Positions 919-3,565 of a stretch of DNA of 64,000 nt are shown here, one piece after another. Below the pieces are notes generated by a model that was not told the DNA's origin, did no database searches, and saw only the letters and a list, made by a program, of their open reading frames with translations. The DNA is taken from NCBI RefSeq assembly GCF_001677475.2, contig NZ_CP015229.1; one strand, written 5' to 3'. Within the stretch, counting starts at the first letter, position 1. Every line of letters begins with the position of its first letter. This DNA is from Escherichia coli (GTDB taxonomy: Bacteria; Pseudomonadota; Gammaproteobacteria; Enterobacterales; Enterobacteriaceae). The position numbers and the translations under genes are program-made.

Positions 919-1241
919 GCCAGTGGAAAGACATCTGCAAAATCGATGACATCCTGCCTGAAACCGGCGTCTGCGCGCTGTTAGGTGACGAGCAGGTAGC
1001 AATTTTCCGCCCGTATCACAGCGACCAGGTGTTTGCGATCAGCAACATCGACCCGTTCTTCGAGTCCAGTGTGCTGTCACGCGGGCTGATTGCTGAACAC
1101 CAGGGCGAGCTGTGGGTCGCCAGCCCGCTGAAAAAACAGCGTTTTCGCTTAAGTGATGGCTTGTGCATGGAAGACGAACAGTTTTCCGTAAAGCATTACG
1201 AAGCACGAGTGAAAGACGGCGTGGTACAGCTACGCGGTTAA
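915..1241 (+). CDS. nirD: Nitrite reductase small subunit (Rieske-like)
   Basis: 108-aa ORF; ATG overlaps nirB stop (ATGA at 915-918); length and sequence match NirD. Confidence 0.9.
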   Translation: MSQWKDICKIDDILPETGVCALLGDEQVAIFRPYHSDQVFAISNIDPFFESSVLSRGLIAEHQGELWVASPLKKQRFRLSDGLCMEDEQFSVKHYEARVKDGVVQLRG

Positions 1242-1250
1242 TGTTTTAAC

Positions 1251-1276
1251 GGGAGGCGCAATGCCTCCCCTTTTTG
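1251..1276 (+). terminator. GC-rich hairpin plus T-run between nirD and nirC (possible attenuating stem-loop)
   Basis: gggaggc-gcaat-gcctccc stem-loop at 1251-1269 followed by cttttt. Confidence 0.45.
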
Positions 1277-1366
1277 CATGGTCCTGTAATAACCTTCGGT
1301 ATATTGCAGGACATTTTTTAAACTTTTTGTTTTATTTTTTGTTTTTATTTTTTAAAGGATAATCAA

Positions 1367-2173
1367 ATGTTTACAGACACTATTAATAAGTGTGCGGCTA
1401 ACGCTGCGCGCATTGCACGCCTGTCGGCAAATAACCCGCTCGGCTTCTGGGTCAGCTCCGCAATGGCGGGCGCGTATGTGGGTCTTGGGATCATCCTGAT
1501 TTTCACGCTCGGTAATTTGCTCGATCCGTCCATACGTCCTCTGGTGATGGGCGCGACCTTTGGTATCGCCTTAACGCTGGTGATTATCGCCGGTTCTGAA
1601 CTGTTCACCGGACACACCATGTTCCTCACCTTTGGAGTGAAAGCGGGCACTATCAGCCACGGGCAAATGTGGGCAATCCTGCCGCAAACCTGGCTGGGTA
1701 ACCTGGTCGGTTCCGTCTTCGTTGCCATGCTCTATAGCTGGGGTGGCGGTAGCCTGCTGCCGGTAGATACCAGCATCGTTCACTCCGTCGCGCTGGCAAA
1801 AACCACTGCACCGGCAATGGTACTGTTCTTCAAAGGTGCATTGTGTAACTGGCTGGTTTGCCTGGCAATCTGGATGGCGCTGCGCACTGAAGGGGCGGCG
1901 AAATTTATCGCTATCTGGTGGTGTCTGCTGGCATTTATCGCGTCCGGCTACGAGCACTCCATCGCTAACATGACGCTGTTCGCCCTCTCCTGGTTCGGCA
2001 ACCACAGCGAAGCCTACACGCTGGCGGGTATTGGTCATAACCTGCTGTGGGTGACGCTGGGTAATACTTTATCGGGTGCCGTATTCATGGGATTGGGTTA
2101 TTGGTATGCTACGCCGAAAGCGAATCGTCCGGTTGCGGACAAATTTAATCAAACTGAAACAGCTGCCGGTTAA
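1367..2173 (+). CDS. nirC: Nitrite transporter (formate/nitrite transporter family)
   Basis: 268-aa hydrophobic ORF, position after nirBD, length matches NirC. Confidence 0.9.
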   Translation: MFTDTINKCAANAARIARLSANNPLGFWVSSAMAGAYVGLGIILIFTLGNLLDPSIRPLVMGATFGIALTLVIIAGSELFTGHTMFLTFGVKAGTISHGQMWAILPQTWLGNLVGSVFVAMLYSWGGGSLLPVDTSIVHSVALAKTTAPAMVLFFKGALCNWLVCLAIWMALRTEGAAKFIAIWWCLLAFIASGYEHSIANMTLFALSWFGNHSEAYTLAGIGHNLLWVTLGNTLSGAVFMGLGYWYATPKANRPVADKFNQTETAAG

Positions 2174-2191: not shown

Positions 2192-3565
2192 GTGGATCAT
2201 TTGCCTATATTTTGCCAATTACGCGATCGCGACTGTCTGATTGTCGGCGGTGGTGATGTCGCGGAACGCAAAGCAAGGTTGCTGTTAGACGCGGGTGCTC
2301 GCTTAACGGTGAATGCATTAGCGTTTATTCCACAGTTCACCGCATGGGCAGATGCAGGCATGTTAACCCTCGTCGAAGGGCCATTTGATGAAAGCCTTCT
2401 CGACTCCTGCTGGCTGGCGATTGCTGCGACGGATGATGACGCGCTTAACCAGCGCGTCAGTGAAACCGCTGAAGCTCGTCGCATCTTCTGTAACGTGGTC
2501 GATGCGCCGAAAGCCGCCAGCTTTATTATGCCGTCAATTATTGACCGCTCACCGCTCATGGTAGCGGTCTCCTCTGGCGGCACCTCTCCGGTTCTGGCGC
2601 GCCTGTTGCGTGAAAAACTTGAATCACTGCTGCCGCTGCATCTGGGTCAGGTGGCGAAATATGCCGGGCAGTTACGTGGTCGGGTAAAACAGCAGTTCGC
2701 TACAATGGGTGAACGTCGCCGTTTCTGGGAAAAACTGTTCGTTAATGACCGCCTGGCGCAGTCGCTGGCAAACAACGATCAGAAAGCCATTACTGAAACG
2801 ACCGAACAGTTAATCAACGAACCGCTCGACCATCGCGGTGAAGTGGTGCTGGTTGGCGCAGGTCCGGGCGATGCCGGGCTGCTGACACTGAAGGGTCTGC
2901 AACAAATTCAGCAGGCAGATGTGGTGGTCTACGACCGTCTGGTTTCTGACGATATTATGAATCTGGTACGCCGCGATGCTGATCGCGTTTTCGTCGGCAA
3001 ACGCGCGGGATACCACTGCGTACCGCAGGAAGAGATTAACCAGATCCTGCTGCGGGAAGCGCAAAAAGGCAAACGCGTGGTGCGGCTGAAAGGCGGCGAT
3101 CCGTTTATTTTTGGCCGTGGTGGCGAAGAGCTGGAAACACTGTGCAACGCGGGTATTCCGTTCTCGGTGGTTCCGGGTATTACCGCAGCTTCTGGTTGCT
3201 CTGCCTATTCGGGTATTCCGCTCACGCATCGCGATTATGCTCAGAGCGTGCGCTTAATTACCGGACACTTAAAAACTGGTGGCGAGCTGGACTGGGAAAA
3301 CCTGGCGGCAGAAAAACAAACGCTGGTGTTCTATATGGGACTGAATCAGGCTGCGACTATTCAGCAAAAGCTGATTGAACACGGTATGCCTGGCGAAATG
3401 CCGGTGGCAATTGTCGAAAACGGAACAGCAGTCACGCAGCGCGTGATTGACGGTACGCTCACACAGCTGGGCGAACTGGCGCAGCAAATGAACAGTCCAT
3501 CGCTAATTATTATTGGTCGGGTTGTTGGCCTGCGCGATAAACTGAACTGGTTCTCCAACCATTAA
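2192..3565 (+). CDS. cysG: Siroheme synthase (uroporphyrinogen-III methyltransferase / precorrin-2 dehydrogenase / ferrochelatase)
   Basis: 457-aa ORF with GTG start ([10 protein letters not shown]...), Rossmann GGG motif near N-term; length matches CysG. Confidence 0.9.

Follow-up and report, generated by a model that had tools for sequence, protein, structure and literature searches.

Layout of the nirD-nirC intergenic region

Because nitrite is toxic in the cytoplasm, the level of NirC, which imports it, needs to be balanced against that of the NirBD reductase; how might such a balance be set when the genes for channel and enzyme lie in one operon? In the 64-kb stretch of Escherichia coli DNA analysed here (the window), the list of open reading frames gives the end of nirB, then nirD (915-1241), a spacer of 125 nt (1242-1366), nirC (1367-2173) and cysG (2192-3565). 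Gene order in the K-12 annotation is identical, and the reading frame at 915-1241 is nirD there. The spacer itself was detected in 5425 of 5426 complete E. coli genomes, with 80-99% identity. The analysis set out below leads us to propose, with good confidence, that this spacer is a composite control region, acting at the level of RNA, which uncouples the expression of nirC, and of promoter-distal cysG, from that of nirBD within the one operon. An earlier note on this DNA had pointed to a GC-rich stem-loop with a T run at 1251-1276 and to a tandem T-rich tract at 1326-1353, just upstream of nirC. Both lie exactly where they were described and have the sequence given for them, the stem-loop folding at -14.7 kcal/mol and the tract containing 26 T in the 30 nt from 1324 to 1353. 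The features to which the text refers are as follows.

1239-1241, + strand: nirD stop codon TAA, 9 nt from the start of hairpin 1 and 39 nt from the start of hairpin 2 (computed distances)
1251-1269, + strand: hairpin 1, GGGAGGC-GCAAT-GCCTCCC (fold, consensus scan, cross-genus conservation with compensatory changes)
1270-1276, + strand: C-TTTTT-G, the short U run 3' of hairpin 1 (sequence, alignment)
1281-1312, + strand: hairpin 2, GTCCTGTAATAACC-TTC-GGT-A-TATTGCAGGAC, 14 pairs and one bulge (fold, Escherichia alignment)
1313-1319, + strand: A-TTTTTT immediately 3' of hairpin 2, the U tract of a possible second terminator (sequence, inference)
1324-1353, + strand: T-rich tandem tract of TTTTTG/TTTTTA-type units, 26 T in 30 nt (Tandem Repeats Finder)
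1354-1368, + strand: putative pairing site for the sRNA NarS, AAAGGATAATCAAAT (15-nt exact complement of MG1655 narS)
1367-2173, + strand: nirC, nitrite channel, proposed to have its expression set by the spacer (reading frame, K-12 annotation)
1261-1362, + strand: reading frame of 33 codons starting in the loop of hairpin 1, judged non-coding (list of reading frames, relatives compared)

Prediction of RNA structure, one of the checks that the earlier note had suggested, revealed a stable structure: taken together, hairpins 1 and 2 give z = -6.7 for 1242-1320 when folding is compared with that of shuffled sequences. An Rfam scan of 800-2400 at E <= 10 returned only sub-threshold chance matches, the best overlap being with sroE (21.3 bits, E = 0.05, where the gathering threshold is 51), while IsrM reached 19 bits against 376.

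Hairpin 1 is conserved across enterobacterial genera

Hairpin 1 is formed by GGGAGGC (1251-1257) and GCCTCCC (1263-1269) enclosing the loop GCAAT (1258-1262), and is followed by a C, by TTTTT (1271-1275) and by a G. ViennaRNA assigned it an energy of -14.7 kcal/mol (z = -3.1), and one of 200 shuffled sequences folded equally well. The consensus scan classed it as terminator-like, with eight pairs if G-T is counted. Terminator-like motifs are not rare (five in 1.6 kb against 2.1 +/- 1.6 expected), and because they are common by chance the case for a function of hairpin 1 rests on its conservation and on published experiments. In an intrinsic terminator a GC-rich hairpin is followed directly by a U tract of about 7-9 nt; hairpin 1 passes the consensus scan, but it has only five U, with a C before them. 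The T residues in the columns of this run are nevertheless at least 90% conserved in the alignment of spacers, and the segment 1270-1276 is the expected release site, or 3' tail, of the nirBD RNA and a candidate cleavage zone for RNase E. A bidirectional terminator was considered and rejected on reading the sequence: on the minus-strand side, hairpin 1 continues into GTTAAAACA, in which there is no T run.

To place these features in a wider context, 80 loci encoding NirD relatives were fetched from species-representative genomes and the nirD-nirC spacers were extracted. The spacers range in length from 67 to 402 nt; both ends are conserved and the middle is hypervariable. At the 3' end it is the ribosome-binding region AAGGATAATCAA that is widely conserved. 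At the 5' end, hairpin 1 lies 5-10 nt after the nirD stop codon in almost all the genera that keep nirC, which amount to more than 12 enterobacterial genera and include Escherichia, Salmonella, Citrobacter, Klebsiella, Leclercia, Huaxiibacter, Kosakonia, Silvania, Siccibacter, Phytobacter and Atlantibacter. Most of the genera that have lost nirC (Enterobacter, Kluyvera, Pseudocitrobacter) are also without hairpin 1, with three exceptions (loci L046, L076 and L028) that keep the hairpin though nirC is lost.

In an alignment of 40 distinct hairpin 1 sequences, 87.5% of the cells are in standard pairs, against 46-67% when the 3' partners were slid out of register, and 26 cells are changed on both sides, against 1-10 in the same slid controls. 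The compensatory changes include GC to CG at the base of the stem and AU to GC in its middle. The covariation score was reached by none of 500 shuffles; this control can be exceeded through the relatedness of the sequences alone, so that the slid controls weigh more. On this comparison of sequences, the structure of hairpin 1 appears to have been maintained by selection across genera.

The reading frame of 33 codons at 1261-1362 offers quite another account of the same nucleotides, namely that they encode a small phenylalanine- and leucine-rich protein. Its ATG at 1261 is preceded by GGAGG (1252-1256) and the frame stays open to 1362; it is probably the historical 'nirE'. Translation of nirE is said not to have been detected by Harborne and colleagues in 1992. 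The ATG and the GGAGG both lie inside hairpin 1; E. albertii and Escherichia sp. MOD1-EC7003 have a frame of only six codons, and there is no ATG in Salmonella; in E. coli the common T7 allele shifts the frame at the C-terminus, and repeat expansion makes that end longer. Since neither the length nor the frame is conserved among relatives, the small-protein gene was rejected, and a coding role is scarcely credible. Five reading frames are mentioned in the title of the paper by Harborne et al. (1992). The 'nirE' of PMC3349551 is an unrelated methyltransferase.

Evidence for termination and processing at the junction

A counterpart of this element has been studied experimentally in Salmonella. 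Wang, Chao, Matera, Gao and Vogel (NAR 2020, PMC7038943) described an intra-operonic terminator downstream of nirD in nirBDC-cysG, to which they attributed termination or 3' protection of nirBD, and found that terminator and U track were needed for full control of nirC by NarS. Deletion of the hairpin and U track lowered the nirBD transcripts and raised nirC-cysG, and with the same deletion NarS repressed a nirDC-gfp fusion only about 5-fold, in place of about 30-fold (PMC7038943). On inactivation of RNase E, the nirC-cysG isoform was lost and the full-length RNA rose; by 5' RACE, several monophosphorylated 5' ends of nirC mRNA were mapped to a U-rich region that begins at the nirD stop codon (PMC7038943). 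Judged by its sequence, hairpin 1 is the orthologue of this intra-operonic terminator. At the position that hairpin 1 occupies in E. coli, S. enterica arizonae and diarizonae have GGGAGGCGCAACGCCTCCCC-T6, a hairpin that differs from that of E. coli only in the loop; the comparison with Salmonella was made on these two subspecies, the serovar of PMC7038943 being absent from the fetched loci. The earlier note had supposed that the region might partially terminate or attenuate transcription, or act in RNA processing or stability, so as to set nirC and cysG expression relative to nirBD, and the experiments on the Salmonella orthologue lend this idea support (PMC7038943).

The published E. coli datasets on coverage and 3' ends were all obtained aerobically, a condition in which expression of the operon is poor. 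In supplement 2 of Adams et al. 2021 (PMC7815308) a Rho termination region is entered at MG1655 3497031, with a Rho score of 3.95 (p = 6e-12), and by coordinate mapping this is nirC +29, or position 1395 of the window. DirectRNA-seq of untreated MG1655 gave 586 reads upstream and 24 downstream in windows of 800 nt around 1395, and after treatment with bicyclomycin there were 920 and 149 reads, respectively (PMC7815308, supplement 2). Coverage is thus far from uniform across the junction, the opposite of what would have counted against the earlier note: from these counts it drops 24-fold, of which a 6.2-fold drop is left with Rho inhibited, so that about four-fold is Rho-dependent. For Term-seq, also named as a check in that note, the curated tables for aerobic LB or M63 contain no 3' end in MG1655 3496800-3497099 (PMC7815308). 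Termination at the hairpins, predicted rather than seen in E. coli, would fit these coverage data.

Might Rho-dependent polarity be the main cause of the low level of nirC RNA, with a long untranslated spacer and a poorly translated nirC start serving to load Rho and the hairpins merely incidental? The Rho termination region at nirC +29, with its high score, is what such an account would predict, but the ratio of downstream to upstream reads is still 149/920 in bicyclomycin, the spacer is U-rich rather than C-rich and so a poor loading site for Rho, and selection on structure is indicated by the way in which hairpin 1 is conserved and covaries. The Rho data were, moreover, collected aerobically, with the operon barely induced. 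We consider this explanation distinctly unlikely.

A second alternative denies hairpin 1 any part in terminating transcription in E. coli and makes it a stability element only, a barrier to 3' exonucleases for nirBD RNA once RNase E has cut the U-rich spacer, with hairpin 2 giving 5' protection to nirC-cysG. The U run, short and interrupted as it is (C-U5-G), the lack of a Term-seq 3' end at the junction in the aerobic tables, and the dependence of the Salmonella isoforms on RNase E (PMC7038943) would all fit. So would the distance of 9 nt from the stop codon: Li et al. (PMC4824070) found that the tR2 terminator was nearly completely repressed by the ribosome when placed 8-9 bp after a stop codon, and that its termination was maximal beyond 30 bp from the stop. 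Against this, Wang et al. read the rise of nirC-cysG on deletion as lost termination (PMC7038943). Dar and Sorek 2018 did not list the nir operon as differentially decaying in aerobic E. coli; that they retained nirB-nirD-nirC-cysG in an operon set that excluded operons with internal terminator motifs counts, on the other hand, against the preferred reading (PMC5927463). The six-fold drop in coverage that persists with Rho inhibited also speaks for termination, but it is equally compatible with differential decay. A role in stability alone is possible, if doubtful. For the preferred reading, in which hairpin 1 terminates a fraction of transcripts, its position within the range over which tR2 was repressed makes masking by the ribosome a plausible reason why termination should be only partial.

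A second hairpin confined to Escherichia

Between hairpin 1 and the T tract lies a further hairpin that was absent from the earlier note. Hairpin 2 (1281-1312) folds at -17.5 kcal/mol (z = -5.0, with none of 200 shuffles as stable), which makes it stronger than hairpin 1. Among the spacers compared it was found only in Escherichia. It is present in 5425 of 5426 E. coli genomes, at a median of one place per genome, and a mobile repeat of the REP/BIME or ERIC type was ruled out on the ground that it is single-copy. Across 14 Escherichia sequences 94% of cells are paired, there is a compensatory change between GC and AU at the base of the stem, and the common E. coli polymorphisms are transitions that keep the structure (A-U to G-U and C-G to U-G). 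Its stem is followed, after one A, by six U; the upper half of the stem is AU-rich, and the consensus scan for terminators did not call it.

The most likely role of hairpin 2 with A-U6, 39 nt past the stop codon, is that of a second terminator lying beyond the reach of the ribosome. Alternatively, if the cut by RNase E falls within 1271-1280, hairpin 2 may protect the 5' end of the processed nirC-cysG RNA.

The spacers of other genera offer some indication of how this arrangement may have arisen. In S. enterica diarizonae, Klebsiella grimontii, Leclercia, Silvania and Huaxiibacter there is no insert, and hairpin 1 runs directly into a T-rich spacer. REP-like palindromes occur in Citrobacter spacers, and an ERIC-like repeat in those of S. 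enterica arizonae, some Citrobacter and Phytobacter; the E. coli spacer was without an ERIC-like or REP-like insert on the same comparison. The simplest reading of the sequences is that the E. coli T tract would continue an ancestral U-rich spacer that once followed directly after hairpin 1, and that hairpin 2 interrupts it.

The T-rich tract abuts a putative NarS pairing site

The sequence tttgttttattttttgtttttatttttt occupies 1326-1353, and Tandem Repeats Finder extends the tract to 1324-1353, with periods of 13 and 6. With its 26 T it is the T-richest 30-mer in the window, no other stretch of 30 nt reaching 22 T on either strand. The RNA of the tract is predicted by modelling to be unstructured and U-rich. 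Pairing of 1332-1341 with the ribosome-binding site at 1353-1362, as in the minimum-energy fold, would make an anti-Shine-Dalgarno element of it, and this candidate was rejected since the fold is at chance level (-7.9 kcal/mol, z = -1.3, 21 of 200 shuffles). The spacer contains nine starts of the RNWUU motif, against 2.25 expected per 125 nt, five of them in or at the edge of the tract (1322-1347).

Directly after the last base of the tract begins a 15-nt segment, 1354-1368 (AAAGGATAATCAAAT), that is the exact complement of ATTTGATTATCCTTT in NarS of MG1655 (b4813, 1279480-1279494). The adjacency of the two, and indeed any connection with NarS or Hfq, had been missed in the earlier note. The site covers the nirC Shine-Dalgarno sequence AAGGA (1355-1359) and reaches into the ATG as far as its second base; exact-match search found it to be unique in the window, and the seed-only duplex has an energy of -20.5 kcal/mol. 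The duplex predicted between the spacer and the whole of NarS was an unrealistic one with multiple loops, and these two methods took its place. NarS is an Hfq-dependent sRNA cut from the narK 3' UTR, which in Salmonella pairs with nirC from -12 to +1 (PMC7038943). In E. coli, a feature table derived from RIL-seq (data of Melamed 2016; PMC8175672, supplement 1) contains, in the rows compared, an entry nirD.nirC.IGT with 121 Hfq chimeric fragments and one partner, its position in the chimeras being strongly target-like. The features listed for that partner (four interactions, score 0.674051) equal those of the narK.narG.IGR row, that is, of NarS (PMC8175672, supplement 1). The partner is not named in the table, and from this match of features within the rows compared we infer that it is NarS. 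The Hfq-CLASH supplements contain no entry for nirC or nirD.

The predicted lack of structure, the RNWUU motifs and the abutment on the NarS site fit a role for the tract as an entry site for RNase E and a landing site for Hfq. The Salmonella authors likewise propose that the U stretch is an Hfq site, their own Hfq-CLIP data showing no signal there (PMC7038943).

The length of the spacer is not constant among strains of E. coli. Of 30 E. coli records taken at even intervals down the ranking, 12 are longer or shorter than the window over a 241-nt query. In the five length variants that were fetched, the differences comprise one or two additional T in the central T run, one additional C in the C run of hairpin 1, the loss of 1 nt from the loop of hairpin 2, and an expansion of the TTTTTA units by 24 nt. 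The alleles of the T tract among E. coli strains are T6, T7, T8 and a TTTTTA expansion, the copy number of TTTTTA being variable; this variation in T run and TTTTTA copy number was likewise absent from the earlier note.

A site on RNA to which protein S1 binds, or an AU-rich stretch, may act as a translational enhancer. This idea lies behind a further alternative, in which the T tract has no role in RNA decay or Hfq binding and is either a U-rich enhancer (S1 landing site) for nirC or a neutral spacer prone to slippage. It gains from the tract being unstructured and directly upstream of the ribosome-binding site, from the polymorphism in length just described, and from the observation that between genera composition is kept and sequence is not. 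Deletion of terminator and U track in Salmonella, however, cut control by NarS as described above (PMC7038943), and neutrality is hard to square with spacers that are 61-71% T despite differing sequence in seven cases (Klebsiella grimontii, S. diarizonae, an Enterobacter MAG, Leclercia, Silvania, Kosakonia oryzendophytica and Huaxiibacter). A tract devoid of any role in decay or Hfq binding is therefore judged unlikely; an enhancer role as such is compatible with roles in Hfq and RNase E action, and they are not mutually exclusive.

A tract that is the most T-rich stretch of the window might also act at the level of DNA, as an internal promoter, an UP element or a site for a nucleoid protein, driving or silencing nirC. 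The promoter scan found no sigma-70-like site on the + strand of 800-2400, and an internal nirC promoter was rejected on finding the + strand near the spacer empty. The nirC 5' ends in Salmonella are monophosphorylated processing products rather than primary ends (PMC7038943), and the tract repeats with periods of 6 and 13, which are out of step with helical phasing. An action on DNA is very improbable, and the proposal of a region that works on RNA is retained.

Proposed mechanism

The following sequence of events would account for these observations. Hairpin 1 with its U5, 9 nt after the nirD stop codon, would halt a fraction of RNA polymerases and would also cap the 3' end of nirBD RNA against 3' exonucleases, while the ribosome finishing nirD may partly mask the hairpin and so keep termination partial. 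RNA that is read through would contain a long, ribosome-free, U-rich stretch in which RNase E could cut to give nirBD and nirC-cysG halves, cleavage and its dependence on RNase E being known from Salmonella; the same stretch probably binds Hfq, as proposed in Salmonella. Hfq-bound NarS would then pair with the 15 nt after the T tract, cover the nirC ribosome-binding site and trigger decay of nirC. This pairing has been shown in Salmonella, and for E. coli its basis is exact complementarity and, indirectly, RIL-seq. With nirC untranslated, Rho might terminate transcription early in the gene, as the bicyclomycin data from E. coli suggest. Hairpin 2 would act as a second terminator or else as the 5' protective hairpin of nirC-cysG RNA. 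The spacer would in this way be the place where the balance between NirC and NirBD is set in one transcript, through partial termination, processing by RNase E, repression by Hfq and NarS, and Rho polarity.

It is tempting to go further and to suggest that Escherichia has rebuilt the spacer, either as a 'hairpin - cleavage site - hairpin' module or as a tandem terminator, together with a slippage-prone T tract that serves as a heritable dial. In the first version, one RNase E cut at 1271-1280 would leave nirBD capped at its 3' end and nirC-cysG capped at its 5' end; in the second, the first hairpin would be masked by the ribosome and the second would not; and in either case T6/T7/T8 alleles and two to six copies of TTTTTA might set the level of NirC, or its responsiveness to NarS and Hfq, strain by strain. 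We regard this extension as speculative and rather improbable.

Comparison with known systems

The closest known system is the Salmonella terminator. The operon is shared, the hairpin lies 8-9 nt after the nirD stop codon in both, and a U run follows. The stem (GGGAGGCG/CGCCTCC) is nearly identical, with -14.7 kcal/mol in E. coli and a reported -14.9 kcal/mol in Salmonella, and a NarS target at the nirC ribosome-binding site is conserved in both. The two differ in that the E. coli spacer is 125 nt long, against about 190-200 nt (194 nt in S. arizonae), has no ERIC-like insert, and contains an extra single-copy hairpin before the main U-rich tract; the distance between hairpin 1 and the NarS site is about 85 nt in E. 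coli and about 200 nt in Salmonella. Because hairpin 2 separates the long T tract from hairpin 1 in E. coli, the result of the Salmonella deletion may transfer inexactly. Functional tests of the element have been made in Salmonella only, the E. coli copy being known from its sequence and from published datasets.

Partial intrinsic terminators, or attenuators, are known within operons, an example being the rplL-rpoB attenuator. The nir element resembles attenuators of this type in that an intercistronic hairpin and U run would lower expression of the distal gene with no separate promoter, and differs from them in being coupled to RNase E processing and to control by sRNA and Hfq. With the malE-malF REP (Dar and Sorek 2018, PMC5927463) and with iscRSUA and RyhB it shares a stable 3' structure on the upstream segment of a processed RNA and the resulting discoordinate expression, a parallel with iscRSUA having been drawn by Wang et al. 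(PMC7038943). Unlike the malE-malF REP, hairpins 1 and 2 are not REP copies, and nir did not come out as differentially decaying in aerobic E. coli. In glmUS, too, there is an intercistronic cut by RNase E whose downstream half is then the target of an sRNA, and this parallel was likewise drawn by Wang et al. (PMC7038943), but GlmZ activates where NarS represses, and glmUS is without a terminator.

The control element is already known: in Salmonella, for which it has been published, it holds nirC expression lower than that of the genes for the enzyme, and the copy in E. coli is orthologous to it. What is of value here is that E. coli shares the core element and that the datasets from this species are in agreement with the mechanism. 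Three points are new, namely hairpin 2, the immediate neighbourhood of T tract and NarS site, and the polymorphism in length, and these are details rather than a new kind of system; two of them, hairpin 2 and the length polymorphism of the T tract, are specific to E. coli and previously undocumented, and they could alter the quantitative behaviour of an otherwise shared device.

Sequence variation in the E. coli spacer

The T tract of the nirD-nirC spacer varies in length within E. coli. Its T run is found as T6, T7 or T8 alleles, the number of TTTTTA units ranges from 2 to 6 among E. coli genomes, and strain VG38-53E1 carries a 24-nt expansion of these units. The variants lie at these places:

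Window 1335-1353; spacer of comparison locus L082; comparison loci L086 and L088: T-tract length variants

For the 241-nt stretch at window 1180-1420, length differs in 12 of 30 evenly sampled E. coli records, and no match above 98.8% was found for it among complete RefSeq E. coli genomes. Yet about 1,600 E. coli genomes match the 49-nt segment containing hairpin 2 (the Escherichia-specific hairpin at 1281-1312) at 100% identity, and the window and E. coli E69 have one and the same spacer sequence. The source strain of the window therefore has a few private changes in flanking nirD or nirC.

Antisense transcription

A region of antisense Rho termination has been mapped opposite the 3' end of nirD in MG1655 (position 3496855; window about 1219, - strand), with 262 and 12 reads in untreated samples and 405 and 66 in the presence of bicyclomycin (Adams et al. 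2021, PMC7815308). The spacer is therefore crossed by antisense RNA in aerobic LB. A promoter scan gave a promoter-like site on the - strand, running from 1868 to 1840.

Spacers in other genera

The nirC gene is absent from loci L029-L035, L040-L057 and L060 (Enterobacter, Kluyvera, Pseudocitrobacter and others), where cysG follows about 135 nt after nirD and the spacer (0-150 nt past the nirD stop) contains a different conserved hairpin, AACAGCAGGAAAA...CCTGCTGTTATCC. Hairpin 1, which follows the nirD stop at 1251-1269 in the window, is retained in Lelliottia (L046), Enterobacter sp. BIGb0383 (L076) and Intestinirhabdus (L028), the last of which has a nirC remnant. The spacers of Cedecea and Buttiauxella (L070, L071, L078 and L080) lack hairpin 1; in its place are 1-3 copies of a palindrome, CCCTCTCCC...GGGAGAGGG, flanked by GGGTGAGGG motifs, which looks like another dispersed intergenic repeat family.

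In the Leclercia adecarboxylata NCTC13032 record (L037, 2827-4213), the match to NirC does not begin until residue 83, and the match to CysG is divided over two frames, a pattern suggestive of frameshifts or of faulty assembly of this record.

A repeat common to the spacer and the narK 3' UTR

Salmonella enterica arizonae, several Citrobacter and Phytobacter carry an insert in the spacer (L007 spacer positions 85-149; also in L008, L012, L013, L017, L058 and L066). Over 65 nt this insert is 77-78% identical (E about 1e-9), on the opposite strand, to an insertion in the E. coli narK 3' UTR/NarS precursor (L085, 2386-2449). NarS and nirC, which are pairing partners, have thus each acquired copies of the same dispersed repeat independently, in different genera. 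Judged by the ERIC consensus, the repeat is taken to be ERIC-like.
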